NCBI GenBank assembly: GCA_964521755.1
Contig: CAZFSZ010000002.1
Coordinates: 7,549-71,548, forward strand
Direction: 5' to 3'
DNA: 64,000 bases
Source: an uncultured Methanosarcinales archaeon
GTDB taxonomy: Archaea; Nanobdellota; Nanobdellia; Woesearchaeales; WJKL01
How positions within the stretch are numbered: the first letter of the stretch is position 1; each line of letters starts with the position of its first letter. The translations under genes were made by a program, and so were the position numbers. A model generated the notes under the pieces. That model saw nothing but the letters and a program-made list of their open reading frames with translations, did no database searches and was not told the origin of the DNA. Below, piece by piece: positions 7,513-57,729 of this stretch.

Positions 7513-9393
7513 TTAAAAAGTTTTTGTCAATACCAATATAACTACAGCTAAACCCAAGGCAAAAATAAAAAAACCAGGAACCAGTCTTTTTGCTTTAAAA
7601 GAAGTAGATTCATATATCAGCGCCTCTTTTAATCTGATTAGATTTGATTTTTCTTTAAGATTTTCTTCTTCCAAGAAGTCCTCTGCTGTATCATCAACCT
7701 CTTCTATAATCCTTATTTTTTCAGTTATCTCTTTCAATGTTTTCTGGTTGTTTTTTCTTATCTTGACCTTAAGATTATAGTCTCCCTGTTCTGCTTCTGT
7801 CAATTGATTGCTAAGCTTAATGGTTTCAGAGCTTCCTTCACCCAATACAATACTTTTTTTATTTTCTTCTCTTTTCCCGCTGTAACATTTAGGGCCCCTG
7901 TAAACGTAACTCCATATATCGATATCATAGTCCTCATCATCATTATTCTCTAGACTAACTTTGATATCAAATTCTTCTCCTGCCTTTACCTCATCAGGTT
8001 TTGAGATAATTTCATATTCAAATTTATTTGAAAAAATTCTGCTTTTCTCCACTTCAACTTTCTCGCATAAAGAATCCGTGATATCCTCTACCTCAAATGG
8101 AAATGAATCCTCTGCAGTATCTTCACTTGTCCATCCTACAAAAACATCATATTCTCCAAAATCATATTTTTCATTGCAGTTGGGATAAAGCTGTATAGGA
8201 ACAGCTGCTGATATATTTGTATACTTTGTAGAGATTGTGATCTTGGATTCTTTGCTTATCTTCTCGTCTCCGTCAGCAGCCCAGAATCTCAATACACTTT
8301 TTGTCTCGTCTCCCTTATAAAGGCTAACTTTTGCTCTTATTGTCTGCCCAAATTTTGCTTTGTCATCTGAACCAAGATCATATATCTTTTCTATATTAAA
8401 TTTAGATTCTTTTACTTTAGAATAATCCTTATTTTCTTCTCCGGGAGTAGGCATAGTTCTCTGCCAGTTTTCATTTACTTTCGCCCATGAACTTCCCTCA
8501 TCTGCTCCTTCATAACTCACTTTATCTGCCAAAAAAGAACCCTCGTCATAAAATTTTAATTCTTCAAAACCTTCATTATTTAGAAAACCTGAAAAGCCGT
8601 TTGTATAAACAGCCAAAAAACCTTTAGAGCTTATTATGGTGCTGCCGATTGTTGTAGTATCTGTAATATATATTCTGTGCCCCTGCAAATCTTCTAAAAA
8701 AGAATTTTGAAGATTTATATTACTTTCTCCGGAATTATAAAGCTCAATCCATTCTCCTTGAGGCATAGGAGCATCATCATTCCCATGAGGATCAGGTAAA
8801 AACTCACTGATTTTTATAACACTGTAATCTATCTCATCTGTACCATAAATACTGTTCTGCTTTCCGGGTGTTCCTCCAGCAATAAAACTTGCCCCCCAAT
8901 TATTCCAAGTATTGTCTTCAGAAAATGATATTTTCTCTAATGTATAATTATCTCCATTGCCCCCCCAGTTAGAGCTGTAATCCAGCATATCAATATATTC
9001 CCCGTCTGTAAGGATTATGCTGTCCACTGAATTCTTTAAAGAAAGAGACAAATCATAAGCACTAAAATTTCCGTCAGAAAAATTCCATATTCTGTCGTCA
9101 TTTCCCCAGCAAGCTTCAAAACTTTCGTTGTCCTTGTCAGCTCCGTCTATTAATTCATCAGCCAATATTATATATTCTCCAGCTCCGATAAAAATATATT
9201 CTAAACTCTCCCCATTTAATGTCCATCCTGTTAAGTTTACAGCTTCATCTCCAGAATTATACAGCTCAATCCATTCACAGTCATAATCATCACATTGTCC
9301 TGGATTGTACATCACTTCATTTATAATGACATCAGCAGCAGAAATATCTATAAAACAGAATGCAATAAAACACAAAAATACAAATTTATTCAT
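7513..9393 (-). CDS. secreted cell-surface protein with two lamin-tail domains (LTD) and a PGF-CTERM-like C-terminal anchor
   Basis: Signal peptide MNKFVFLCFIAFCFIDISA. Two copies of the LTD signature: INEVMYNP...EWIELYNSGDEAVNLTGW and ISEFLPDP...EWIELYNSGESNINL. The C-terminus is RLVPGFFIFALGLAVVILVLTKTF (PGF then TM then basic). Confidence 0.65.
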   Translation of the reverse strand: MNKFVFLCFIAFCFIDISAADVIINEVMYNPGQCDDYDCEWIELYNSGDEAVNLTGWTLNGESLEYIFIGAGEYIILADELIDGADKDNESFEACWGNDDRIWNFSDGNFSAYDLSLSLKNSVDSIILTDGEYIDMLDYSSNWGGNGDNYTLEKISFSEDNTWNNWGASFIAGGTPGKQNSIYGTDEIDYSVIKISEFLPDPHGNDDAPMPQGEWIELYNSGESNINLQNSFLEDLQGHRIYITDTTTIGSTIISSKGFLAVYTNGFSGFLNNEGFEELKFYDEGSFLADKVSYEGADEGSSWAKVNENWQRTMPTPGEENKDYSKVKESKFNIEKIYDLGSDDKAKFGQTIRAKVSLYKGDETKSVLRFWAADGDEKISKESKITISTKYTNISAAVPIQLYPNCNEKYDFGEYDVFVGWTSEDTAEDSFPFEVEDITDSLCEKVEVEKSRIFSNKFEYEIISKPDEVKAGEEFDIKVSLENNDDEDYDIDIWSYVYRGPKCYSGKREENKKSIVLGEGSSETIKLSNQLTEAEQGDYNLKVKIRKNNQKTLKEITEKIRIIEEVDDTAEDFLEEENLKEKSNLIRLKEALIYESTSFKAKRLVPGFFIFALGLAVVILVLTKTF

Positions 9394-21823: not shown

Positions 21824-23146
21824 TTGGTTGACATCGGAACAGCATTAAGGCACTACAAAAAAGAAGATATTCAGAAAGAGATGGTTCTACATGCTGAAAA
21901 CAAGGAGGTAGTGGGAAGCTTCAAAGGAGAGGGCTATGCTAAAAGGCCTGACACCTTGACCTATCCCAGAGACATACTTGAGCTTGTGAAACAAGGCATA
22001 ACATCTTTCCATGCTTCAGAAGAGCTATGGAGCAACCCTCTGCAGATCGACCCTATGATGAAAAAGCAGGATGTTGAAAAGTTAAGGATAGGCTGGGACC
22101 TTGTTATAGATATAGACTGCCCTTACTGGGATTACTCCAAGCTTATTGCAGACTTGATTGTCAAGGCATTAAAGCATTATAATATAGATTCTTTAAGTGT
22201 AAAATTCTCAGGAAATAAAGGATTTCATATCGGTGTTCCTTTTGAAGCCTTTCCAAAAAAGATAGGGGATGAAGACGTAAGCAAGAAATTCCCGGACCAC
22301 ATAAGATTGATAGCCAATTATCTTAAAAATATGATCAAGAACGTATTCCTTAAAAAAGTCCTTGAAATAGAAAAGAACAATATAAAAAAGATAGCAGAAA
22401 ATCTTCAAAAACCACTAAAAGAGATATCTACAGGAAAAAAACTTGACCCTGAAAAGATGATTGATATAGACACTATCCTGATATCAAGCAGGCACCTCTA
22501 TAGGATGCCTTATTCTCTTCATGAAAAATCAGGGCTCTGCTCAATCCCTGTTGATCCTGATAAGATTATGGGGTTTGATAAGTCAAGTGCAAAACCTGAA
22601 AACATATTTGTAAATAAAAAATTCAGGTTCCTGGAAAGAGAAAATATACAGCAAAACCAGGCAAAAGAATTATTTGACAAGGCAACTGAAATGATGGTAA
22701 TAAAAAAGAGCATGGAGGATTTCAAGAATAGGGAGATAAGACCAAAACAAGAGATACCAGAAGATGCTATACCTGAAAAATTCTTCCCCCCGTGCATAAA
22801 AAACATCCTAACAGGATTAAGCGACGGAAAAAAACGCTCCTTGTTTATCCTGACAAACTTTCTGACATGCTGCGGATGGGAGCATGACAAGATAAAAACT
22901 CTTCTCAAAAAATGGAATAAGCAAAATGATGAGCCCTTAAGAGAAGTCTTGCTTGTGAGCCAGCTAAGATACCACAAAAACAAGAAAAAAAACATCCCTC
23001 CTCCAAACTGCCAGAATTCCATGTATTACAAAGACTTCGGAATATGCAAGCCTGACAACTTATGCAGAAAGATAAAAAACCCTGTGCAGTATTCAAAAAG
23101 AAAGACATATTTTCTGAACAAAAATAAAAGCAGAAAAAAATCATAA
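21824..23146 (+). CDS. priS: DNA primase, fused small-subunit catalytic domain (PriS) and PriL-CTD-like C-terminal domain
   Basis: AEP motifs LVIDIDCPYW (hhhDhD) and SGNKGFHIGVPFEAF (sGxxGhH). The C-terminal FFPPCIKNILTGLSDGKKRSLFILTNFLTCCGW resembles the conserved PPC(M/I)...R..LF.L.FL..G motif of the primase large-subunit C-terminal domain, with further Cys residues downstream. Confidence 0.65.
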   Translation: MVDIGTALRHYKKEDIQKEMVLHAENKEVVGSFKGEGYAKRPDTLTYPRDILELVKQGITSFHASEELWSNPLQIDPMMKKQDVEKLRIGWDLVIDIDCPYWDYSKLIADLIVKALKHYNIDSLSVKFSGNKGFHIGVPFEAFPKKIGDEDVSKKFPDHIRLIANYLKNMIKNVFLKKVLEIEKNNIKKIAENLQKPLKEISTGKKLDPEKMIDIDTILISSRHLYRMPYSLHEKSGLCSIPVDPDKIMGFDKSSAKPENIFVNKKFRFLERENIQQNQAKELFDKATEMMVIKKSMEDFKNREIRPKQEIPEDAIPEKFFPPCIKNILTGLSDGKKRSLFILTNFLTCCGWEHDKIKTLLKKWNKQNDEPLREVLLVSQLRYHKNKKKNIPPPNCQNSMYYKDFGICKPDNLCRKIKNPVQYSKRKTYFLNKNKSRKKS

Positions 23147-45683: not shown

Positions 45684-46751
45684 TCAATAATTCAGCTTAT
45701 ATCTCAATATTGCTCCAATTCCTCCCAAACCTTCCAATTTCTTTCCTCCTTCAAACTCGCTGCTGATGATATGAACTTCTCCTTTTGTTTTGTCTGTGAA
45801 TTTCATCACTTCATCAACTTTTTTGTATTTTCCCTCTTCTCTTTTTTTGTCTATAAATTTGTCAGTTATCAATAAAACTTTTACTGCTCCTGCAGCTGCT
45901 GCCTTCTCTACTTCCTTAAATCCATATGAACCTAACTCTTGTTTTGATATCTCTGTCAGCAGCTCTTCCACTAACTTCAGTTCCTTTGAAACCCTGTCTT
46001 TCTTCAATACTTCCCTTGTCTCAGGCCTTTTCAAAACCTCATTAACTGCGTTTTCTCCAACGCTGCTGCACGTGGCTGTTATAATCTTTTTCTTTAATTT
46101 GTCATCTTCAATTCTGTTGATTAATTCTTCTTTCCAAAAAGCAGGACTTGCAACAATGATATGGTCTGTTTTGTATCTTTCTGAATATTCCTTCAGCATT
46201 TTTATAATATCTTCATAAAAACTTCCTCTCGCTACTGCTTTTTCTTCCTTTTTCTGAACCTCTCCTTCTAAAAATGTTAAGATATCATATCCTTTTCTTT
46301 TTGAAAGTGCAAAGATTGCCTCTTCCCTATTCAAGATACATATTAATATTGAAGGCTGTTTAAAAGATGCAGCCTCTTTTAATTTATCTAACTGAAATTT
46401 AAGCCATTTCTCTTTTTTTATTTCTGCTATCTTTCCTTCCTTAAAATTAAATGTATGATGGCTTCCTTTTGGAACTTCCTCAGGACCTTCCTTAACAACA
46501 CCTGAAATCCTTAATATATCGTCTTTAAACTCTATTTTCTCCACTTCAATTGAAATAAAAATATTCTTTTTTGTGGTCTCTGTCCTTCTCTGCTCTTTTT
46601 CTCCTATCTTTATCTTTCTGACAGTTTTTCCGCTGATAATGTCTCCTGCTTCAATTATATGGCTTAAATACCACAAATCATCAAGACTATCTATTTTAAC
46701 TTTTATTTCATTTTTTCTTAGATTTTTTCTAATTATCTTCATTATATACAA
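45684..46751 (-). CDS. pelA: Pelota/Dom34 (mRNA surveillance, aRF1-like)
   Basis: Three-domain aRF1-like architecture with N-terminal MKIIRKNLRKNEIKVKIDSLDDLWYLSHII. Confidence 0.8.
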   Translation of the reverse strand: MYIMKIIRKNLRKNEIKVKIDSLDDLWYLSHIIEAGDIISGKTVRKIKIGEKEQRRTETTKKNIFISIEVEKIEFKDDILRISGVVKEGPEEVPKGSHHTFNFKEGKIAEIKKEKWLKFQLDKLKEAASFKQPSILICILNREEAIFALSKRKGYDILTFLEGEVQKKEEKAVARGSFYEDIIKMLKEYSERYKTDHIIVASPAFWKEELINRIEDDKLKKKIITATCSSVGENAVNEVLKRPETREVLKKDRVSKELKLVEELLTEISKQELGSYGFKEVEKAAAAGAVKVLLITDKFIDKKREEGKYKKVDEVMKFTDKTKGEVHIISSEFEGGKKLEGLGGIGAILRYKLNY

Positions 46752-46836
46752 AATTTAGAAAAACATTTATATATACTTTATCATTTTAGTATAACAATCG
46801 ATATTATAAAAAAATCCTTTTTAAGAGGTGTAAACT

Positions 46837-48027
46837 ATGTTTTCAAAATTAAAGAAAAAAGCACAAGGTAATGCTTCAGCTGCTGCTGTCTTGATAGCGC
46901 TAATTGGTTTGTTTATCATATTATATATACTATTAATTCCTCCTGAAGAAAGAGAAAAAATCTTAGGAGAAGATGAACTGGAAAAAACCAAAGAAGCAGG
47001 AGAAAAAATGAATATTCTTCTTTCCGAATCTCCTGGAAGGCTCTTCCCTGCTGAAAAAAGAGAATTTGAACAGTCATTTCCAGCTGTAAGCATATATGTC
47101 GGAGAAGAAGGCATGGAATTAAAAAAACTGGATTCTTTATATGCTGGAAGATCATTGTTCAGCAGCAACAAAAACAATATCAGTTTTGAAGTTGTAAATA
47201 TTGGTAACATAGAGAATGCCCTGCTAAACTTTTATATAAAAGAAGGCCAGGGAAGGCTTATGATAAGATTAAATGGAAAAGAAATCTTTAATAAAGAACA
47301 AAAAAAAGGAAATATAGACCCCATTAATCTTAATGAATATCTTGTACAAGGAGAAAATTTGATTGAATTTGAAGTTTCCTCTCCCGGTGCAGCATTCTGG
47401 AGAACAAATGGGTATTCTCTGGAAGGTATCTTGGTGACTGCAGATATACTCAGGAAAGAAACCCAGGAAAGTTCTTTGGCTTTTGTAGCCAGTGAAGAGG
47501 AGATAAACAACATGAAAAAGGTAAAATTAAGGTTCACTCCTGACTGCACTCAAAGCACAGCAGGAACACTTACTGTAGAGATTAATAATTACAAACTTTA
47601 CTCTGCAGTTGCAGACTGTAATGTGCCTATAAAACCTTTAGAGTTCATTCCTGAAAGATTGATTGCAGGAGAAAATACACTAAAGTTTATTACAAATAAG
47701 GGAAGATACCTTATTGACAATATAATGTTAAACTCAGAATTAAAAGAAGCTGTTGCTCCTGTTTATTACTTTGAGATTGAAAAAGAAGATTTTGAAGATA
47801 TTGAAGAGAACAGAACAGAAGCAGTGTTGTACATAGAGTTTGTCGATGATATAAGTGAAAAAATTGCAGACATCACTGTTAACAACCGCCTTATGAGGCT
47901 TGACCAGACTGAAGTAGAGTTCAACCAAACTATAAGCAAATGGGTTGACCAGGGCAACAATGCCTTAAAGATAGAGCCTGAAGAAGTGCTTGACATAGTT
48001 GAATTAAAGGTTTCACTGGAAACTTAG
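46837..48027 (+). CDS. exported/membrane-anchored protein; N-terminus resembles a class III (type IV pilin-like) signal peptide
   Basis: MFSKLKKKAQG|NASAAAVLIALIGLFIILYILLI: basic stretch, Gly, then a ~22-aa hydrophobic segment. The remaining ~350 aa are hydrophilic. Confidence 0.35.
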   Translation: MFSKLKKKAQGNASAAAVLIALIGLFIILYILLIPPEEREKILGEDELEKTKEAGEKMNILLSESPGRLFPAEKREFEQSFPAVSIYVGEEGMELKKLDSLYAGRSLFSSNKNNISFEVVNIGNIENALLNFYIKEGQGRLMIRLNGKEIFNKEQKKGNIDPINLNEYLVQGENLIEFEVSSPGAAFWRTNGYSLEGILVTADILRKETQESSLAFVASEEEINNMKKVKLRFTPDCTQSTAGTLTVEINNYKLYSAVADCNVPIKPLEFIPERLIAGENTLKFITNKGRYLIDNIMLNSELKEAVAPVYYFEIEKEDFEDIEENRTEAVLYIEFVDDISEKIADITVNNRLMRLDQTEVEFNQTISKWVDQGNNALKIEPEEVLDIVELKVSLET

Positions 48028-48083
48028 ATTAAACTTAAATAAAAAAGAGGTGAATAAAGAAGAGTTCTTTTGATTAAATTAAA

Positions 48084-50159
48084 ATGGCTGAAGATGGTGT
48101 TTTTGGTTCTGCTGAAAAAGGATGGGATGTTTATATAGATGGCAAGCTTAAAGGATGGCATAGGACTAAATCATCTGCAGAAGCGGCATATCAGGAAGAA
48201 AAAGAAAAAGAGGCAAAAACAGACGCATCAGAAAAAAGTGATGAGACTGCGCCCCAAAAAGATGAAAAAACGGATTCTCCTTATTCGGGGTCTGGATTAA
48301 AAAAAGGAGCAAAAGCAACTGGAAAAGGTACGTTGAAAGGATTAAAGGCAGTAGGTACAGGAGCAATGGCAGCAGGCGGTGCTGCTCTAGGTGCATTAAA
48401 AAAAGGAAAAACAAGTAAAAAAAGAAGTCCAACAGGCGGTGCTGCTCTAGGTGCATTAAAAAAAGGAAAAACAAGTAAAAAAAGAAGTCCAACAGGCGGA
48501 GCTGGAATATGGTTTATTCTGGCTATAGTTTTATACCTTTTAGATCTGTTTATTACAAAATTTAATGGAATAGACATGGGAGTATTTTTTTCAAGATTTA
48601 TACAGCTTAGCCCTGAAAATATGGCAAGGCTGTTTTTAAATGGGGTTGTACTGGTACTGGCAATATCATACCTTTTATTAAAAAAACCCAGCAAAAGAGA
48701 ATTTTTATCTTTTTTCCTTCTGTTGGAAGTAGGAAGTCTGATCATAACATTGGGAGGAATTGATCCGGGAAGTATAATTCACATTCTGTTTGCTATATCT
48801 TTTTATATTTTTTACTTGTATCCTGTTTCAGGAGACAAGACAACAGCAAACTTTGTACTGTCTATTCTTTTGTTTATAGATTTCTTTGGATTTGGAATCC
48901 TGGCAAATTATGTAAATAATCCAATTATCTCCAACAGATTGATAATCCCTATTTGGATATATGCAATAATATTTACTACAAAAGACAAACCAACCTGGAT
49001 GAATGTTATAACTTTCTTTATAATCATAATAAATGTCTTTGCATTCTGGAACGGAGCAGTACAGCTCGGAAGGATTGAAGCAGGTCTTGAACCTGAACAG
49101 TTAGAAGAAGCCAAGGGTTTTATTTCAGGATCCTTAAAAAACATTGGGGATACATGGGGTTCATTGATGGATCCTGTTTATTGTTCTCGCCAGGAAAACT
49201 ACGATGAATGTTTAAATAAAAGAAGTGCAGAAAGAATCTGCTCAGAATATGAGGCAGGAACAGAAGAGCGTGAAGAATGTATAAATAAAGTACTTGGAAA
49301 AGGGGTGGAAGTAGAGATAAAAGAAGAGTATACTGCTACAGATATTAGATTTGAAGAACTTACAGATGCCGCATGGTATAAAAATATACCATCGAACAGC
49401 AGAGAAGAGATACCTATGAATGTTATCCTGAATGCCCCTATAGATAATCCTATAAATGTTAAACTATCTTGTTTATTTAAAACTGCAGATGAAAATGAGA
49501 TTCCTGGAATAATAAATCCTTCCAGGGCAAGGGAAATGATTGTAAAAGGAAATGACAAGGACCTGGTATATTGTTCCCCTGACCTTCATTACCCTGAACA
49601 AGACAGCATCACAGCTGTATTTGAGGTAACTGCTGAAGACATAACAACTACAGCAGTATTGGAAAGAATATTTGTAGGGGAAAAAATATGGATGGACAGA
49701 AAAGAAAAACAAAAAGTTCAGCAAACAGCTGGCTCATCCTTAAGGGAAAGCCAGGCATCTATAACTGGAGATGAATTTGCAGTTTATACTTTCAGGATAG
49801 GAGCAGACAAACTTGTCTATGATAAATCTACATTAACTTTTACTGGAAAATATGAAGATCTAAAAAAAGATGAAGGGGGGGAGCTTTTGTCTGTAAAAAA
49901 TGTTCTTATAGACCTAAGAGAATATGGTGTAGTCCCTTCACCCAATTGTGAAAAAGAAGGCTATAGGATAACTCAGGATTATAATATAATATGGGAAGGT
50001 ACAGGCAAACCATCACGTTTGACATGTGATTTAATTGTTCCAGAAAAACTAAGAAATATCAAGGATTTTGAAGATTATCCGGTAGAATTTAGGTCAGAGA
50101 TGGTTTATACTTACAAATACACCAAACAAAAAAAGATAGACTTGGTAAGCACAGCTTAA
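48084..50159 (+). CDS. large polytopic membrane protein with duplicated GAALGALKKGKTSKKRSPTG unit and big C-terminal extracytoplasmic domain
   Basis: ~7 TM segments (residues ~150-340), then a ~350-aa hydrophilic Cys-containing domain. Confidence 0.4.
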   Translation: MAEDGVFGSAEKGWDVYIDGKLKGWHRTKSSAEAAYQEEKEKEAKTDASEKSDETAPQKDEKTDSPYSGSGLKKGAKATGKGTLKGLKAVGTGAMAAGGAALGALKKGKTSKKRSPTGGAALGALKKGKTSKKRSPTGGAGIWFILAIVLYLLDLFITKFNGIDMGVFFSRFIQLSPENMARLFLNGVVLVLAISYLLLKKPSKREFLSFFLLLEVGSLIITLGGIDPGSIIHILFAISFYIFYLYPVSGDKTTANFVLSILLFIDFFGFGILANYVNNPIISNRLIIPIWIYAIIFTTKDKPTWMNVITFFIIIINVFAFWNGAVQLGRIEAGLEPEQLEEAKGFISGSLKNIGDTWGSLMDPVYCSRQENYDECLNKRSAERICSEYEAGTEEREECINKVLGKGVEVEIKEEYTATDIRFEELTDAAWYKNIPSNSREEIPMNVILNAPIDNPINVKLSCLFKTADENEIPGIINPSRAREMIVKGNDKDLVYCSPDLHYPEQDSITAVFEVTAEDITTTAVLERIFVGEKIWMDRKEKQKVQQTAGSSLRESQASITGDEFAVYTFRIGADKLVYDKSTLTFTGKYEDLKKDEGGELLSVKNVLIDLREYGVVPSPNCEKEGYRITQDYNIIWEGTGKPSRLTCDLIVPEKLRNIKDFEDYPVEFRSEMVYTYKYTKQKKIDLVSTA
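48375..48494. repeat. exact 60-nt tandem duplication within CDS
   Basis: GGCGGTGCTGCTCTAGGTGCATTAAAAAAAGGAAAAACAAGTAAAAAAAGAAGTCCAACA occurs twice back to back (48375-48434, 48435-48494). Confidence 0.9.
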
Positions 50160-50160
50160 A

Positions 50161-51012
50161 ATGAAAAAAATATTAATTTTATTGATTACTGGATTTATCA
50201 TAATTCTTGCTGGATGCAAAAGAACAACCCCTGATTTAGAGCCCGAGTTGATAGAATACCATAAAGGAACCCATGCACTAAAGATGAATTTTGTTGAAAA
50301 TCTCCCACCTGATGAGATTACCGAAGGAAGTGAATTTATAATAGGATTGGAATTAGAAAATAAAGGGGCTTTCGATATTGAAAATGGAGAAATTTCAATA
50401 TCTGGATATGACCAAAGCAAGATTCAAATCGATGACCCTGAAAAATACTTTAATATAGAAGGCAAAAAACCAGGGTTTCCTGAAGGCGGATATGAAATCA
50501 TGAATTTTCAGGGAAAGAATATAGATTTTCCAAAGATTAAAGAAATAGATCCAGCAAAATTGAAGATAATTGCAAGGTATGATTATCAGACAGAAGCAGG
50601 AGCAGAGGTTTGCATAAATCCTGACATATACAGCCATATAAAAACCAAAGAAAATATATGCGAGCCAAAAGAGATTACCCTATCTGATGGTCAGGGAGCG
50701 CCTGTTGCAGTGACTAAGATACAGCAGGAGCCTGTTCCTTTCGAAAACAAGATAAGGATAAAATTCAATATTTATTTGGAAAACAAAGGAGATGGAAATA
50801 TTAAAGACAACATCACAATAGATGAAGTAAGGCTTGCTAACGTACCGATAGCATGCACAAAAAAGAACATTGAATTGAAGGAGGATAAAAAGATAGAATG
50901 CTATACAGAAATACTGGCAGATGCTGGAGCATATTTGACTTCTCTTTCGATTAAATTAGATTACAAATACATATCAAGAATAAGTAAGGCAGTTCAAATA
51001 AAAAAACAATAA
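50161..51012 (+). CDS. secreted lipoprotein, paralog A of a tandem family (unknown function)
   Basis: Lipobox LAGC. Shared motifs with next two genes: ELENKGAFD, PEGGYE, SDGQGAPVAVTKIQ, and C-terminal LSIKLDYKYISRISKAVQIK. Confidence 0.55.
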   Translation: MKKILILLITGFIIILAGCKRTTPDLEPELIEYHKGTHALKMNFVENLPPDEITEGSEFIIGLELENKGAFDIENGEISISGYDQSKIQIDDPEKYFNIEGKKPGFPEGGYEIMNFQGKNIDFPKIKEIDPAKLKIIARYDYQTEAGAEVCINPDIYSHIKTKENICEPKEITLSDGQGAPVAVTKIQQEPVPFENKIRIKFNIYLENKGDGNIKDNITIDEVRLANVPIACTKKNIELKEDKKIECYTEILADAGAYLTSLSIKLDYKYISRISKAVQIKKQ

Positions 51013-51057
51013 TATTTTCCGAAAAACTTAAATAAATAATAAACGCAGTTAAATAAG

Positions 51058-51993
51058 ATGAAAAAACTACCTTTAATTTTATTTGTATTGGTTCTTACAG
51101 TTATTTGCGGCTGTAGGAGACAGCCCGGACCAGATGATGAACAAGATATCTCTAGAGATATCTATAAAGGCGCCAAAGGCCTTGAAATGAACTTTATCAA
51201 AGACATGCCTCAAAGTAGGATTTATGATACATCGGATCTAACTATCCTGCTTGAATTGGAAAACAAAGGCACTTATGATCTTTCTGGAACCAATTGTAGA
51301 TTATATCTTTCTGGATTCGATGATAAAATAATAAGGGGATTAGATAAGACCAAGATATGTTCTTCTTTTCTGGAAGGAAAAAGTCCCTTAAACCCTGAAG
51401 GCGGATATTCCACTCAACAATTTTCTACAGACCTCATCAATCTTCCTGATTATCTTGATTCGCTTAATCAAAGAATATTATTGACTGCATGCTACGAATA
51501 CAAGACAAAAGCCTCCCCTGTTGTATGTATTGACCCTAATCTTTATGAAATTGGCCCTATCGAAAGAGGGTGCACAGTAAGAGACGTCTCAGTACCGGGG
51601 GGCCAGGGAGCACCTGTTGCTGTATCAGGAGTTAATGTTGAGATGGTTGGCAAAGAAAAAGTATCTTTCAATATAAAATTATCTAATACAGGGGGAGGGA
51701 CAGTGCTAAACTCTGGAGCAGATGTATTCACTGACTGCCCTTATCAAATAAACCCAAAAGATTATAATATAGTAAGATATGAAGTTGATATGTCAGGAGG
51801 AACAAAAATAAGATGCACTCCTGAAATTGAAGGAAGTGAAAAAACTAGGCTTGTGAATAACAAAGGAACAATATATTGCACCTTTGATATTTCAGGAGAT
51901 TCAGCCTATACAACACCGTTAAGGATAACTTTAGACTATAACTATATGGATTCAATCTCAAAAGATGTTGAAATAATAAAAACACCAGGATGA
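51058..51993 (+). CDS. secreted (lipo)protein, paralog B
   Basis: Signal peptide ...LTVICGC. Motifs ELENKGTYD, NPEGGYS, VPGGQGAPVAVSGV, and C-terminal LRITLDYNYMDSISKDVEIIK. Confidence 0.55.
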   Translation: MKKLPLILFVLVLTVICGCRRQPGPDDEQDISRDIYKGAKGLEMNFIKDMPQSRIYDTSDLTILLELENKGTYDLSGTNCRLYLSGFDDKIIRGLDKTKICSSFLEGKSPLNPEGGYSTQQFSTDLINLPDYLDSLNQRILLTACYEYKTKASPVVCIDPNLYEIGPIERGCTVRDVSVPGGQGAPVAVSGVNVEMVGKEKVSFNIKLSNTGGGTVLNSGADVFTDCPYQINPKDYNIVRYEVDMSGGTKIRCTPEIEGSEKTRLVNNKGTIYCTFDISGDSAYTTPLRITLDYNYMDSISKDVEIIKTPG

Positions 51994-52018
51994 TTAAAAT
52001 TAAAAAGGAGGTTTAAAA

Positions 52019-52936
52019 ATGAGTAAAAAAATATTAGCAATGTTTATTATTGTCTTTGCAGCATTATTCATTGCAGGCTGTGAAGACGGAGAAAAAGAAA
52101 CTACTGGACCATCCCCTTATATAAGTGGAACTAAAGGCATTACTGCTGAATTTGAACCTATGGGTATTGAAGATAATGGTCTTTATTCTCTTTATGAAAA
52201 TGAAGAGTTTCCTATCCAAGTTCTCCTTAAAAACAAGGGAGAGCACGATATAGAATCTGGAGATGCTAAAGTAAAAATATATGGTATTCTTTTAGAAGAT
52301 TTTTCTGGAATAGAATCAGGAACAAAGACAAACAGCCAGGAAATAGAAAAAATTTCAGAATTCAATGAAGAAGGTGGTGAAGAAATAATTGATTTCGGGC
52401 AAAATGTAAAATATACACAGGAAATTCCCGGAACATTCTATGATTTAAATGTATTTGCTAGCTATACATACAGCTATAAAACCTATGCATCAGTCCCTAA
52501 TGTCTGCTTCAAAGAAGATCTAAGAGACGAAAGGGTATGCACTGTAGAAGAATCAAAAGATATTTTCTGCTCTGGAGCTCCGATCCAGGTAACTTCAGCA
52601 GAAGAAAAACCTGCAGGGTCTGGGATAATAGAGCTTGACTTTGAGATTGAGAATGTGGGTGGAGGAAGAGCAACAATACCTGGACAAGAATTCTCACCTC
52701 AATACGACCAAGTTGCATTCACTATAGAACCAGAAACAGAAAGAAATAAATGGCTCTGCAGAGCAGGAGCAAGGGAAAATGAAGCAAGGCTAATTGATGA
52801 TAAATCCACTATTAGATGTAAGCTAAGAGAGCCTCTGGAAGAAGATGCTTTATACACAAAAGCAATTGGTTTAACCCTAAGCTATGACTACAGAGATATA
52901 ATTCAACAAAAAATTAGGATAGAAAAAGAAATTTAA
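52019..52936 (+). CDS. secreted lipoprotein, paralog C
   Basis: Lipobox FIAGC. Motifs LLKNKGEHD, NEEGGEE, CSGAPIQVTSAEEKP, and C-terminal IGLTLSYDYRDIIQQKIRIEK. Confidence 0.55.
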   Translation: MSKKILAMFIIVFAALFIAGCEDGEKETTGPSPYISGTKGITAEFEPMGIEDNGLYSLYENEEFPIQVLLKNKGEHDIESGDAKVKIYGILLEDFSGIESGTKTNSQEIEKISEFNEEGGEEIIDFGQNVKYTQEIPGTFYDLNVFASYTYSYKTYASVPNVCFKEDLRDERVCTVEESKDIFCSGAPIQVTSAEEKPAGSGIIELDFEIENVGGGRATIPGQEFSPQYDQVAFTIEPETERNKWLCRAGARENEARLIDDKSTIRCKLREPLEEDALYTKAIGLTLSYDYRDIIQQKIRIEKEI

Positions 52937-52978
52937 TTTCTTTTTTGATGTTTTTTTCTTTTTGTTTTTTATTAATTT

Positions 52979-53950
52979 TTATTCCTTAGAACCAGCTAAC
53001 CCTACTTGGCTTAACAAAGCCTCTAACTGAATATATTCATCACTGCCTTCAGTCATCCTAAACTCAATCTCTCCGCATTTATCTATCAGATTCATCTTCT
53101 TTCTTCCATCCATATCTAAATTCCATATCTCTTTCTGTATCTGTTTTACAACATCCAGTCCGCTTAATCCGTAATTCAGCATTACATCCAACATCTTTTT
53201 CCTTGCTTCAATAAATTTATTTTCCAAGGCTAAATCTAAAAACTCCTTAACTTCCTTAGGCTTTGCTACTGAAGCCAAAGAAAAAACAATCTCTTCGGTT
53301 ATATTTTCAGATATAGAAGCGCAGCTTTGAAGTATGTTCTCTACTCTTCTGCAGTCTCCTTCGCTTATAACATACAAAGCCTCCTTTGCTTTCTCATCAA
53401 TCTTTAGATTCTCCTCTCCGATAATCTTGTCTATTATCTCAAAAACATTTTTTTTAGGAAGAAGCTTAAATCTAAAAACTGCACATCTTGACTGTATCGG
53501 GTCAATAATCTTAGAAGAATAATTACAGCTTAAGATAAACCTCGTTGTCCTTGTAAAATTCTCCATTGTCCTTCTTAAGGCCTGTTGAGCCTCTTTAGTT
53601 AATGCATCACACTCATCCAGATAGATTATCTTAAAAGGAACATCTCCAATTGCTCTGGTTCTTGCAAAATCCTTGACCTTGTGTCTTATGATATCTATGC
53701 CTCTTTCATCAGAAGCATTTAATTCAAGAAAATTCTGTCTCCAGCTTTCACCAAATAGCTGCCTTGCTATTACCAAAGCCAAAGTTGTCTTTCCGATGCC
53801 TGCAGGTCCTGCAAACATCAGATGAGGCATATTCTTCTTCTCAACAAAAGAACTGACTCTTTTGACTATCTCCTCCTGACCTTTAACTTCTTCAAAGGTT
53901 TCAGGCCTGTATTTTTCAGTCCATATTGCTGTATTTGTTTTCTTTTCCAT
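52979..53950 (-). CDS. rfcS: replication factor C small subunit
   Basis: Walker A GPAGIGKTT, DECD (DEAD-like) box, SRC motif in ...IIDPIQSRCAVFRF; archaeal RFC-S pattern. Confidence 0.9.
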   Translation of the reverse strand: MEKKTNTAIWTEKYRPETFEEVKGQEEIVKRVSSFVEKKNMPHLMFAGPAGIGKTTLALVIARQLFGESWRQNFLELNASDERGIDIIRHKVKDFARTRAIGDVPFKIIYLDECDALTKEAQQALRRTMENFTRTTRFILSCNYSSKIIDPIQSRCAVFRFKLLPKKNVFEIIDKIIGEENLKIDEKAKEALYVISEGDCRRVENILQSCASISENITEEIVFSLASVAKPKEVKEFLDLALENKFIEARKKMLDVMLNYGLSGLDVVKQIQKEIWNLDMDGRKKMNLIDKCGEIEFRMTEGSDEYIQLEALLSQVGLAGSKE

Positions 53951-54457: not shown

Positions 54458-55903
54458 ATGCCGTCCCGTGATATGTCTAAAATAGCTTCAAGACCTGGCT
54501 TAGACGTTAAAAAAGTAAGCTGGCTTGAGCTTTTCTTTGATTTGCTTTTTGCGCTTGCTTTGGCAATGTCTGCAAAAAAGCTTGAACATATATATGGCAG
54601 CACTGTGAGTCCTTGGATGGCTTTTACACAGTTCATATTGATCTTTGTGTTTCTTATTATCTTTTGGTACAGGCATATGGCCCTTGTTAACAGGTTCAAA
54701 AGATCTTCATTTTTATCAGAAATGATAACATTGTTTATCGGATTTTTGGTTATTATATTTACTCAGTTTATAAGGATATGGGGAGTAAATCCTGTAGTGG
54801 GAAGCTATCTTGCCACGATAACAATTTTCCTTATAGCATTGTCAACTGCATTTCTTTATTTTTTCTTTTCACTTAGGATATCAGATGGTGGAGAAAACGA
54901 GAAAAAATGGGCAAGGGCTTCTGCAAAAAACATGCTTTGGGAATCAATAGGTTATTTTAGTGCATTGATCGCTACTCCTGCGATAAGGCCTTTTTGGTTT
55001 ATTATTGTGTTCATATATTTTAATAAATATCCTTTTATTACCTGGATCAATCCAAAAGCAAAACCCAATATTCCTCCTGAACTTCAAAATGTACCTCAAG
55101 AAAATATACCTCACAAATCTGAAAGGATAGGTCTTTTTTCTTTGTTAGTTTATGGCCTGCTTCTTGTGCTGGCTGCTACCCCTCTTATGGATATAGATTT
55201 ATCTTCATCAGAGGGAATCTTGATTCCCATATTGATGTTCGGAAAGCTGCTTTTCTTTATATCTGTAATATGGTATATCCATTATAGGCTGTTTGAATTG
55301 GCTCAGCCAAAAGGGCACCAGTTTACCGCTATGAATTTTATAATCCTAGCTTTGCTTGTAGCTGCCACCCAGTTTATCAGGATCTTGCTTGTTGAACCTT
55401 CAGTATTCGTTTCGATTGTCTTTGCTGTAACTGCAGGATTATTATTGAGTGTTATGGGAACCATATATTGGAATATAAAAAAGATGGCTGGAAATCCCCC
55501 TTCAGATCCGTTGATGATGGCTTTCAGAAGGTGGGCTTATTTCTTATATATAGCTGCCACTGCTTTCTTTGTATCCATCGTTTTCTTTAAACAGCAGCAG
55601 ATAATGCTGCTAATATGGGAGGGAATATTGGTTATAGCATTCCTTGGATTGCTTATCGACCGTGGATTGAATGCTAATTATTATATGGGATCTAGTCTAA
55701 AAGTCAAGAGAAAAGTACTTGACCACCCAACTGTATCTGGACTTTCATTCATATTTATGGGCATACTTATCTTTTTTGTTCTGACTATCCTGCTTGAAAA
55801 ACCTTTAACAAGCTGGTGGATATTTGTCTGGATTTCTCCAGCAGTTGTTGGTTTCTTTATGCTGCTGAACCACTGGCTTTTCAAAAGAATAAAACCAAAT
55901 TAA
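54458..55903 (+). CDS. LtrA-family (low temperature requirement A-like) polytopic membrane protein
   Basis: The N-terminal KVSWLELFFDLLFALALAM matches the LtrA hallmark (S/TWLELFFDLVFV); ~10 TM. Confidence 0.55.
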   Translation: MPSRDMSKIASRPGLDVKKVSWLELFFDLLFALALAMSAKKLEHIYGSTVSPWMAFTQFILIFVFLIIFWYRHMALVNRFKRSSFLSEMITLFIGFLVIIFTQFIRIWGVNPVVGSYLATITIFLIALSTAFLYFFFSLRISDGGENEKKWARASAKNMLWESIGYFSALIATPAIRPFWFIIVFIYFNKYPFITWINPKAKPNIPPELQNVPQENIPHKSERIGLFSLLVYGLLLVLAATPLMDIDLSSSEGILIPILMFGKLLFFISVIWYIHYRLFELAQPKGHQFTAMNFIILALLVAATQFIRILLVEPSVFVSIVFAVTAGLLLSVMGTIYWNIKKMAGNPPSDPLMMAFRRWAYFLYIAATAFFVSIVFFKQQQIMLLIWEGILVIAFLGLLIDRGLNANYYMGSSLKVKRKVLDHPTVSGLSFIFMGILIFFVLTILLEKPLTSWWIFVWISPAVVGFFMLLNHWLFKRIKPN

Positions 55904-55904
55904 A

Positions 55905-56858
55905 ATGCTTGATATATTTTATTTAGATAAGAATAAAAAATTAAAAAAAGGCAAAGTTGAAGATTTGACTAAGTTAAAGAACAAAAAGATATGGGTTGAT
56001 GCTGTAAAGATAACAAAATCCGAGACAAAACTCCTTAAAAAATTGTTTGACTTTCATTCTGTAACTATGGAAGACTTAAACACGTCCCATGGACGTATCA
56101 AAGTTGAACAATTTCCCCATTATCTTTTCTGTACATTCTATGGCCTGGAAAAAAAAGAGAATCACAAGATAAATCTCCTTCCGATGGATTTTGTTCTTGG
56201 AAATAAACTTGTGATCAGTTCCCATATATATAAGATAGAAAGTTATGAAAAGATAAAGAAAAAAGAAGATTTACTGGAATATCTTATGAAAAAAGGTGTT
56301 TATATGATCTTCCACAGGCTGCTTGATGAAGAAATTGACAATTTCTTCCCAGTCCTTGAAGAGATAGATGATGAACTGGAAGAATTAGATGATCAGCTTA
56401 CAAAAAAAGCGAATAGAAACATGCTTAAAAATATATTAAAGATAAAAAAGAAGATTGTAGGAATCAAAAAAATGACATTTCCCCAAAGAGAAAAGATTTC
56501 ATTTTTGTCAAGAAGACGATATAAATTTATTCCTGAAAAATCATTGCCTTATTTCAGAGATCTTTACGATCATGCAATATGGGTCTCAGATGTTGTAGAA
56601 AACCACAGAGAAGCCATAGCTGGAACATTTGATGCATATATGACTGCAATCTCTAATGAGATGAATGAGGTGATGAAGGTCTTGTCTATAATTGCCACTA
56701 TTGCTCTTCCAATGACTGTAGTCTCTGGAATATATGGGACAAACTTCATAAACCTCCCTGGATCTGAAGCCCAAAATGGATTCTGGATAATGGTACTTAT
56801 ACTCGGTTTTATGGGTGTAATTATGATTATATTCTTTAAAGAAAGAAAATGGTTCTAG
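55905..56858 (+). CDS. corA: CorA-family divalent cation transporter (GTN variant of GMN motif)
   Basis: Cytoplasmic alpha/beta domain plus two C-terminal TMs with YGTNF between them, as in CorA family members. Ends ...FKERKWF. Confidence 0.6.
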   Translation: MLDIFYLDKNKKLKKGKVEDLTKLKNKKIWVDAVKITKSETKLLKKLFDFHSVTMEDLNTSHGRIKVEQFPHYLFCTFYGLEKKENHKINLLPMDFVLGNKLVISSHIYKIESYEKIKKKEDLLEYLMKKGVYMIFHRLLDEEIDNFFPVLEEIDDELEELDDQLTKKANRNMLKNILKIKKKIVGIKKMTFPQREKISFLSRRRYKFIPEKSLPYFRDLYDHAIWVSDVVENHREAIAGTFDAYMTAISNEMNEVMKVLSIIATIALPMTVVSGIYGTNFINLPGSEAQNGFWIMVLILGFMGVIMIIFFKERKWF

Positions 56859-56868
56859 TTGTTTATTT

Positions 56869-57729
56869 TTATTTTGTTCTTTTTTCTAATAATCCTTTGA
56901 GAGAATCTTCATCAAAACACTGCTTTTTCAGACCGCATTTACAGCATTTGTTTTGGTTCTCTGTTCTTTTTGGGATTTTATTCTCTTCTAATAATCTTCT
57001 GACCTTATCCTTTAGTTCTTTTACTTCTTCTTTTAAAAAAGGATTTATCACCACCTGTCTTCTTTCATCAGGATCAAGATAATGGATAAAGGCTTCTTCT
57101 ATCTTTTTGCCGTACTTCTCTTCCATCATTAAAGCATATGCTCCTATCTGAACCCTGTGACCGGGCCATACCCCTTCCTTAGGCATACTCCCTGTCTTTA
57201 ATTCTACAGGCACATAACCTTCAGGATAAATCTCTATCTTGTCTACAATCCCTTTTAATTCAAGTTCATCTGAAGCTATCTTTTTTTCAGATTCAACTTT
57301 GGGAACCAAATTGTCCCATAATTCAACCCCATACAGGTTAGATTTAACAATAAATTTGTATATGTTTAATGCTCTTATCTCACTTTCTCTCTTAAAAAAA
57401 GGCCATATCTCATGATATGCATCGATCAAAGGAAGCTTGATGTTCCTTAACCTGTATTTGTTCTTTGTAATGGATTTTCTTAATAAAGCAGAATAAGTCT
57501 TTGCATATCTGTTATAGATATCTTCAAATTCATCTCCTTTTTTGATACTTGAAACAATTCTTTCTTCTACCTTGTTTGCCTCGTCATAAGTCTCATGCCT
57601 TATGCTGCCCTTTACTAAAGCTGCTTTTTCAGGCTCAAACAGCCCTAAAACCCTCTCTAAAAACAACTTTCTAGCGCAGTATAGGTAAGAACTTAACATA
57701 GTAACAGATATTCTTCTCTTTCTAGCCAT
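56869..57729 (-). CDS. Cas4-like PD-(D/E)xK nuclease with C-terminal Fe-S Cys cluster (DUF83/RecB family), standalone
   Basis: N-terminal SSYLYCARKLFL (Cas4 YxCPRKhWL-like). GIVDKIEIYPEGYVPVELKTG gives the D...ExK core. RVQIGAYALMM is the QhxxY motif. C-terminal CCKCGLKKQC gives the Cx2Cx5C pattern. Confidence 0.65.
   Translation of the reverse strand: MARKRRISVTMLSSYLYCARKLFLERVLGLFEPEKAALVKGSIRHETYDEANKVEERIVSSIKKGDEFEDIYNRYAKTYSALLRKSITKNKYRLRNIKLPLIDAYHEIWPFFKRESEIRALNIYKFIVKSNLYGVELWDNLVPKVESEKKIASDELELKGIVDKIEIYPEGYVPVELKTGSMPKEGVWPGHRVQIGAYALMMEEKYGKKIEEAFIHYLDPDERRQVVINPFLKEEVKELKDKVRRLLEENKIPKRTENQNKCCKCGLKKQCFDEDSLKGLLEKRTK

Follow-up and report, generated by a model that had tools for sequence, protein, structure and literature searches.

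A lineage-specific operon for predicted surface proteins of Woesearchaeales and its possible engagement of bacterial peptidoglycan

The window, a 64,000-nucleotide (nt) stretch of DNA from an uncultured archaeon placed by GTDB in the Woesearchaeales (GenBank assembly GCA_964521755.1, contig CAZFSZ010000002.1, positions 7,549 to 71,548), carries on its forward (+) strand an operon of five genes, here called g1, g2, pA, pB and pC. The operon is a vertically inherited unit of the core genome, and in a number of relatives the product of its second gene, g2, is fused at its C-terminus to one of four unrelated kinds of peptidoglycan hydrolase. We propose, tentatively and with somewhat less than even confidence, that the operon encodes a lineage-specific, membrane-anchored surface complex that engages bacterial peptidoglycan; the assembly of this complex, its surface location, its stoichiometry and its role toward peptidoglycan or a host are what we infer from gene content, synteny, folds and domain fusions.

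The original prediction, made from the sequence alone, had described five consecutive same-strand genes for exported or membrane proteins, and the open reading frame (ORF) listing agrees with it. The five ORFs lie head to tail at 46837-52936: g1 (46837-48027, 396 amino acids, aa), g2 (48084-50159, 691 aa), pA (50161-51012, 283 aa, starting 1 nt past the g2 stop), pB (51058-51993, 311 aa) and pC (52019-52936, 305 aa), with successive gaps of 56, 1, 45 and 25 nt. For each of the five products, a membrane anchor and an extracellular location are predicted. That the source organism is a DPANN archaeon, as had also been suggested, is supported by an archaeal RNase P RNA (RF00373, 115 bits) at 1628-1973 on the minus (-) strand, the sole Rfam match within the window, and by the named homologs of the operon proteins, all of which are labeled Woesearchaeota or Nanoarchaeota.

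The five products gave no match above the curated thresholds of Pfam and NCBIfam and none to PHROGs at E<=0.01, and profile searches of PDB sequences with g1, the three paralogous lipoproteins pA, pB and pC, and the transmembrane (TM) domain of g2 reached only E 0.19 at best. The lipobox signature of the three paralogs is the only hallmark of a characterized family that was found. In the literature, no description of the operon or of the four families other than g2 was found, and the paper on the Woesearchaeota of Lake Dziani Dzaha mentions none of the features of the operon.

The g2 family and the hydrolases at the C-terminus of some members

In the g2 protein, an N-terminal tail that is basic and disordered precedes ~7 TM helices, and an ectodomain of ~340 aa rich in Cys follows them. 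Hydropathy and low-confidence AlphaFold2 secondary structure agree with its earlier description as a ~7-TM protein with a large ectodomain, whereas the epithet "giant" does not suit a protein of 691 aa. According to an exhaustive profile search, the g2 family comprises 336 clusters at 50% identity, of which 178 score E<=1e-10, and a member of this family was recognized as the second gene in related loci. A word-indexed search, by comparison, returned four relatives only, with the low-complexity tail flooding the candidate list. The 90%-identity cluster of the window g2 is represented by a 53-aa Logan fragment (P0329; P and L numbers are our own handles), which hides the full-length protein from word-indexed searching.

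Many members of the family continue beyond the ectodomain, and a C-terminal tail of at least 100 aa is present in 93 of the 139 g2 representatives with an intact ectodomain end. An SLT lytic transglycosylase domain was recognized by Pfam in 21 tails, and a BLAST cluster of 29 plus singletons raises the number of this type to ~33. Peptidase_M23 tails are found in P0189, P0320, L025 and L030, Amidase_3 occurs together with SLT in P0231, Glucosaminidase is found at one GTDB locus, and a few members carry beta/gamma-crystallin or fn3 domains. A further cluster of 35 tails, the largest, is Cys-rich or Ig-like and mostly without a Pfam match. Neither this cluster nor another of seven members is SLT-like by hhalign, and their scanned representatives have no Pfam match except for a weak Peptidase_M23 match in P0320. 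The SLT domain (PF01464) is present in the orthologs P0123, P0180, P0187 and others but absent from the window g2, which ends 3 aa past the Y-x-Y strand of its ectodomain and has neither an enzyme tail nor a Pfam match. ES, G-x-x-Q and AYNG are kept in the SLT tails, and we take these to be the SLT motifs.

The occurrence of four unrelated murein-hydrolase families at the same g2 tip is the strongest available clue that this tip may meet peptidoglycan, and the most likely target is the bacterial wall, since archaea do not make murein. The earlier idea of a host-attachment or surface module thereby receives indirect support, but the tandem duplication by which the module was thought to evolve is not recent (see below).

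In Woesearchaeota and Pacearchaeota, large lytic transglycosylases and SLT proteins have been interpreted as a means of binding or degrading bacterial walls (PMC8204110; PMC9723730), and archaeal peptidoglycan hydrolases have been found to kill bacteria (PMC12352652). The SLT-bearing g2 members, for example P0123, P0180 and P0187, are Woesearchaeal membrane proteins 1000-1200 aa long whose lytic-transglycosylase domain is extracellular. They thus belong to the class of large extracellular SLT (GH23) proteins already described, and the g2 family appears to include some of those. In the respective papers, these proteins are treated as stand-alone enzymes (Castelle et al. 2015, 2021; Vigneron et al. 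2022), whereas here the SLT domain is an optional C-terminal addition to a 7-TM ectodomain protein inside a five-gene operon, and the window g2 lacks it altogether. SLT surface proteins as such were thus already noted, though uncharacterized; what is new is their genetic and architectural context, the four partner families and the modular tip.

Membrane complexes that tether cell-wall hydrolases are known, such as the SpoIID/M/P engulfment machine and the VirB6-like protein with TraG/CwlT of monoderm conjugation. By analogy of function only, the operon may resemble these systems, in which a polytopic protein positions muralytic enzymes for cell or membrane contact. It differs from them in having no detectable family relationship and no VirB4 or VirD4 ATPase, in being archaeal, and in having the enzyme fused rather than recruited. 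A conjugative module similar to a type IV secretion system was considered and rejected, with no VirB4 or coupling ATPases in the operon or its conserved flanks and no TrbL/VirB6 Pfam match in g2 or its relatives.

The TM domain of g2 (aa 140-331; 48501-49076, +), with ~7 helices, was delimited from hydropathy, low-confidence AlphaFold2 secondary structure and conservation. It diverges quickly and has no Pfam or PDB relative. Within it, D154, G162, D266 and P289 are kept in 82-97% of 128 family members; the codons of the membrane-embedded residues D154, D266 and P289 lie at 48543-48545, 48879-48881 and 48948-48950 on the + strand. These Asp, Asp and Pro residues suggest that the domain has an activity of its own, and they speak against a passive anchor.

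All eight Cys of g2 are located in the C-terminal ectodomain (aa 345-691; 49116-50156, +). The ectodomain is conserved across the family, and jackhmmer recovered 37 orthologous ectodomains from the second genes of as many loci. Three of its Cys, C463, C497 and C622, do not vary, and a fourth, C648, is present in at least 90% of the sequences. Its final ~110 aa (49824-50156) match lipoprotein domain 2, with which they share the closing C...C-x-L...Y-x-Y...I-x-V strands. When the 37-sequence ectodomain profile is compared with the paralog profile by hhalign, the full ectodomain gives E 1.4e-4 and the C-terminal subdomain E 1.4e-6 with a probability of 90%. The comparison of a single g2 ectodomain sequence with the paralog profile is not significant, and the N-terminal half of the ectodomain shows no relation to paralog domain 1. 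Because the C-terminal subdomain of g2 aligns to lipoprotein domain 2, a single type of domain is probably common to four of the five proteins.

The basic N-terminal tail of g2 contains the exact 60-nt tandem duplication that had been pointed out originally. It spans 48373-48492 (+), with 48373-48432 identical to 48433-48492 (TRF, 2.2 copies); the span 48375-48494 given first describes the same register. The duplication doubles the 20 residues GGAALGALKKGKTSKKRSPT (aa 98-137) in a Lys/Gly-rich stretch, and the closest ortholog, P0121 (82% identity), has a single copy of the 20-aa unit. The independent Logan contig L001 (run SRR7048227) begins at 48470, the first 31-mer that is unique beyond the repeat. 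Because this contig breaks exactly at the repeat boundary, the data fit a repeat that is present in the reads, and an artefact of assembly was rejected. The duplication arose recently, at the level of the strain and within a low-complexity tail, and probably matters little for function.

The lipoproteins pA, pB and pC and the anchor protein g1

The three genes downstream of g2 encode paralogs, as had been recognized, with pairwise identities of 35% for pA/pB (E 2e-45), 27% for pB/pC (E 3e-23) and 27% for pA/pC (E 2e-12). pC is the most divergent copy within the genome and the most clearly separate orthogroup. The motifs first listed as shared by all three are exact in pA and pB, but only approximate in pC (KNKGEHD, EEGGEE, SGAPIQV and LSYDY). 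The signal peptide and lipobox are borne out: the lipobox reads LAGC in pA (Cys19), ICGC in pB (Cys19, atypical at -2) and IAGC in pC (Cys21), and its Cys is invariant across 121 family members. The strict form [LVI][ASTVI][GAS]C is present in 88 of these and a relaxed, lipobox-like tetrapeptide in 99. Lipoproteins and the lipidation enzyme AliA have been reported as common in DPANN archaea (PMC12462473). Besides the lipobox Cys, four more Cys are invariant in the same 121 homologs.

An AlphaFold2 model of pB, computed from the 121-sequence alignment (pLDDT 91.8, pTM 0.84), shows a signal helix, a linker, two beta-sandwich domains and long paired terminal strands. According to this model, the paralogs are tandem, generic CARDB/Ig-like beta-sandwiches, an assignment of fold and not of function. 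The earlier statement that they belong to no known domain therefore holds insofar as no characterized family scores above its cut-off, CARDB (PF07705) matching pB and pC only below the gathering score, but a fold can be assigned. Compared with CARDB, the macroglobulin MG domains, the C-terminal barrels of transglutaminase and the leg domains of integrin alpha, pB gives TM-scores of at most 0.25 when the whole chain is considered. In contrast to CARDB/Ig-like surface domains in general, the paralogs have four conserved Cys, a terminal Y-x-Y strand and a lipobox as features of their own.

The same model bears on the idea that the operon serves nutrient uptake, with the three lipoproteins as substrate-binding proteins that feed a transporter formed by g2. 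Lipid-anchored extracellular proteins beside a polytopic protein do resemble the layout of binding-protein-dependent transporters. However, the tandem beta-sandwich of pB is not the two-lobed alpha/beta fold of periplasmic binding proteins, so that substrate-binding proteins of ABC or TRAP transporters were rejected; a match to substrate-binding proteins was an example of a refutation given in the original prediction. Furthermore, no ABC ATPase or permease family was matched, the g2 TM domain matches no transporter family, and a fusion to cell-wall hydrolases would be out of keeping with uptake. This explanation is already largely refuted by the fold, and we regard it as very improbable.

The module had been thought to evolve by tandem duplication, and the comparison of lipoprotein copy number across related genomes, which had been suggested as a check, speaks against recent duplication of this kind. 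Exactly three lipoproteins are present in the 27 complete loci, and the best cross-genome matches keep their position in 485 of 702 cases for A-A, 651 of 702 for B-B and 677 of 702 for C-C. Because these matches respect position, the triplication is old and the A-B-C order fixed. Other loci are reduced: at least five more distant ones (L021, L023, L024, L034 and L051) have a single lipoprotein of the A type, and L033 has two, of the A and B types. In L021, L023 and L024, the ORF after the lipoprotein starts with a Rossmann-type GGGSWG dinucleotide-binding motif and, judging from this N-terminal sequence, may be glycerol-3-phosphate-dehydrogenase-like. A fourth, divergent copy of the lipoprotein family is found outside the operon at L031:6479-7576 (-), ~1.3 kb beyond pelota. 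A fast-evolving or recent array was accordingly rejected: the orthogroups are old, their order is fixed, and the variation consists of loss plus one stray fourth copy.

pA is the copy that is retained in every reduced lineage, and the minimal conserved unit is g1, g2 and pA. Of 36 loci, most have a pA start that either overlaps the g2 stop by 4 nt or lies no more than 6 nt away from it, which suggests that the two genes are translationally coupled.

The first gene of the operon encodes a protein of a different kind. From its N-terminus, g1 has a basic stretch, a hydrophobic helix of 22 aa, a Pro-Pro, an acidic linker and three beta-sandwich repeats. The N-terminal anchor (aa 1-35; 46837-46941, +) reads KKKAQG followed by NASAAAVLIALIGLFIILYILLI-PP, and the alignment of the family gives the consensus KK[GA]Q, 0-6 small residues, ASAAAxLIAIIAxLIVLYILFL, PPxERE and an acidic linker. 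The triple repeat (47167-48024, +) comprises d1 (aa 111-204), d2 (aa 206-303) and d3 (aa 304-396), ~95 aa each and each ending in G-x-N-x-L-x-F; d2 contains two invariant Cys. By hhalign, the repeats are homologous (d1-d2 E 3e-14, d2-d3 E 2e-5), and the g1 profile shows no relation to the paralog profile. A few members of the g1 family have weak, sub-threshold Pfam matches to galactose-binding-like carbohydrate-binding (CBM) families.

The N-terminus of g1 may be a class-III-like signal or else a signal anchor. Archaeal class III signal-peptide proteins, such as type IV pilins and those of the Sulfolobus bindosome, start with a short basic stretch, after which come a small residue, Gln and ~20 hydrophobic residues, and g1 is similar to them in these respects. 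The sugar-binding proteins of the Sulfolobus bindosome are a precedent for large surface proteins with a class III N-terminus that do not form fibres. On this basis, g1 could be a cleaved class III (prepilin-type) substrate in a short fibre or a bindosome-like array, and the TM domain of g2 could serve as its dedicated peptidase or as a platform for assembly. The pilin-like N-terminus noted at the outset is ambiguous. Ahead of the 22-aa hydrophobic stretch, a [KR]-[GA]-Q motif is frequent in the g1 family. A FlaFind-like regular expression ([KRDE][GA]/[ALIFQMVED][ILMVTAS]x3, directly before the hydrophobic stretch) fits 14 of 53 family members, several of which read KRG/QASAAAALIAII, but neither the window g1 (KKKAQGNASAAAV) nor the other 39 follow this pattern. 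After the A+B-only operon of L033, a 657-aa ORF (L033:17488-19461) with a textbook class-III-like N-terminus (MKKRGQLSVFIIVAVVIAVASL) follows, which may be an extra pilin-like partner.

A conserved Pro-Pro terminates the hydrophobic stretch in the g1 family and is followed by an acidic low-complexity linker of 30-40 aa, whereas the alpha-1 helix of pilins continues into the globular domain; to judge from the sequence, g1 looks more like a tethered signal anchor than a pilin helix. Elsewhere in the window, no ORF begins with a class-III-like N-terminus. No pilus assembly gene, such as an ATPase or a PilC/FlaJ-like gene, is present in the operon, and none was seen among the 10 upstream ORFs scanned or the downstream genes annotated through synteny, pilus ATPases and prepilin peptidases not having been searched for systematically. 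The two highly conserved membrane Asp and the Pro of g2, encoded directly downstream of g1, would suit a peptidase. However, a Peptidase_A24 match is absent from the ~130 g2 proteins scanned, the PDB chains of FlaK and of a presenilin homolog were not matched, and the Asp motif of g2 is D-x-x-G-x-G instead of G-x-G-D. A pilin- or bindosome-like role of g1 is therefore an improbable explanation of the operon, although a less remote one than nutrient uptake.

Conservation of the locus and its surroundings

Searching with the paralog profile recovered 218 proteins of ~300 aa and searching with g1 recovered 55 proteins of ~395 aa, all of them unnamed or annotated as hypothetical and without a Pfam domain. 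For the survey of loci, a g1 profile built from a 21-sequence alignment was run against one genome per GTDB species, the ORFs of the related loci were called, and these were searched with hidden Markov models for each component of the operon. The g1 profile recovered 46 species-level loci, including that of the complete genome GW2011_AR15, and the related genomes are all labeled Woesearchaeota or Nanoarchaeota apart from a few probable mislabels.

In almost all loci that are long enough to judge, the order is pelota (-), then g1, g2 and the lipoproteins, then replication factor C (RFC, -) and a PRC-barrel gene (-), and metagenome contigs repeat the layout of pelota, g1, g2, lipoproteins and RFC. 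A scan of IMG/VR revealed no viral relative of the operon genes. Because the locus order recurs across related genomes and IMG/VR holds no relative, the operon is a vertically inherited core-genome unit and not an island. Cargo of a phage or mobile element was rejected, given the absence of PHROG matches and IMG/VR relatives and the fixed chromosomal position. The operon genes diverge faster than the neighboring housekeeping genes, as would suit a surface location: at distances that leave RFC at 67-80% identity, the corresponding values are 33-58% for g1, 27-71% for the lipoproteins and 20-30% for g2.

In the window, pelota (45684-46751, -) and the small subunit of RFC (RFC-small; 52979-53950, -) were assigned via synteny with annotated contigs, as was the PRC-barrel gene, which flanks the operon beyond RFC-small on the - strand. 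The divergent intergenic region between pelota and g1 (46752-46836, described on the + strand) contains AT-rich, TATA-like stretches and a Shine-Dalgarno-like GAGGTG site 7 nt before the g1 ATG, and is the presumed promoter of the operon; a GGAGGT site precedes pC. At the other end, the T-rich spacer between the convergent pC and RFC-small (52937-52978) has runs of 6-8 T (TRF row 52949-52970) and looks like an archaeal oligo-T terminator.

Several observations concern the flanks and the remainder of the window. The RFC-small orthologs at L012:8359-10908 and L015:15998-18883 are 849 and 961 aa long compared with the usual ~320 aa and probably carry inteins, and an intein-bearing AMP-binding enzyme (Pfam Intein_splicing/LAGLIDADG) is encoded at positions 4172-7057 of L005. 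After the PRC-barrel gene, synteny with the annotated contig L002 identifies an LtrA-like membrane protein, CorA and a stand-alone Cas4/PD-(D/E)xK nuclease at 54458-57729, and no CRISPR array is in sight. The window has a low GC content of ~34%, and its core gene content includes gyrase A, a ribosomal-protein operon with SecY, PheRS, a Hef-type helicase and a fused primase. The last is a single ORF of 440 aa at 21824-23146 (+) with small (PF01896) and large (PF04104) primase domains, that is, a fused PriS-PriL. A 626-aa protein encoded at 7513-9393 (-) has two Lamin Tail Domains (PF00932, E 1e-27) and is probably a further secreted or surface protein of the archaeon.

A proposed surface complex and its significance

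The main rival to an engagement of peptidoglycan, with which it overlaps, is that the operon encodes a housekeeping scaffold of the envelope (an anchor for the S-layer, for instance, or a coat on the surface), which is needed whatever the host and on which the hydrolase and adhesin tails are displayed as passengers. We consider such a scaffold less likely than the peptidoglycan-engaging complex, but a serious possibility nonetheless. A fixed place in the core genome, with pelota on one side and RFC on the other in nearly all related genomes, and the constant composition of the operon are what would be expected of it, and Ig-like and CARDB folds are typical of archaeal surface proteins. However, at least four unrelated murein-hydrolase families at one C-terminus are hard to explain unless the tip meets peptidoglycan. 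In addition, two of the three lipoproteins have been lost in some lineages, and the retention of polar residues in the TM domain would be unusual for a passive anchor.

Several points weigh against an engagement of peptidoglycan by the complex. The window g2 has no hydrolase tail, and neither have about one third of the g2 proteins, which are tail-less, or another third, which bear non-enzymatic tails; the cluster of 35, the largest, shows no enzyme signature. The fusions could merely display unrelated enzymes on a surface scaffold, and the core-genome position and near-universal presence of the operon fit a housekeeping role in the envelope equally well. The homology between the g2 ectodomain and the paralogs covers ~40-90 aligned columns, and the AlphaFold2 model of g2 aa 130-691, derived from a five-sequence alignment, is of low confidence (pLDDT 32.9). 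Finally, the conserved Asp, Asp and Pro of the TM domain are left unaccounted for by a purely scaffolding model.

In the complex that we nevertheless favor, g2 would be the membrane core, with its basic tail in the cytoplasm and its disulfide-rich ectodomain projecting outward as a stalk. Cys able to pair as disulfides are conserved only in the ectodomains, namely in the lipoproteins, g1 and g2. The lipid-anchored pA, which is always present, and usually also pB and pC would pack against the homologous C-terminal subdomain of g2, while g1, tethered by its single helix, would contribute three CBM-like beta-sandwich repeats. The assembly may attach to the sacculus of a bacterium, be it host or prey, and where g2 is tipped with an enzyme, it could open the sacculus locally and let the tiny archaeon make close contact. 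In the organism of the window, whose g2 has no such tip, the complex would play an adhesive or structural part, and any lytic activity would have to come in trans.

A bolder version of this proposal, which we rate as rather unlikely, although ahead of a pilin-like role, is that the operon encodes an undescribed, lineage-specific machine that breaches or docks onto bacterial walls, with the TM domain of g2 as its active element. This domain might act as an ion-coupled transducer or, as an intramembrane aspartyl peptidase, bring about the maturation of g1, and it would drive or assemble a pseudo-symmetric stalk of g2 and the three lipoproteins. The triple-repeat g1 would cap the stalk, and muralytic or adhesive tips would be presented to the bacterial host. 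Were this machine real, many Woesearchaeales would have bacteria and not archaea as their hosts, and the contact between DPANN archaea and their hosts would gain a concrete entry point for molecular study.

Woesearchaeota are among the most widespread uncultivated archaea. The "large lytic transglycosylases" have so far been the main genomic hint that some Woesearchaeota attack bacteria, and this hint is now placed in a genetic context: the enzyme is an optional tip on a conserved 7-TM ectodomain protein that is always accompanied by a triple-repeat anchor protein and by between one and three Ig-like lipoproteins and is vertically inherited with them. The operon provides five marker families for surveys of the lineage and a defined set of proteins to seek at contact sites. 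If the g2 tip does meet the wall of a host, its type (SLT, M23, amidase, glucosaminidase, crystallin-like or Cys-rich) should track the type of host.

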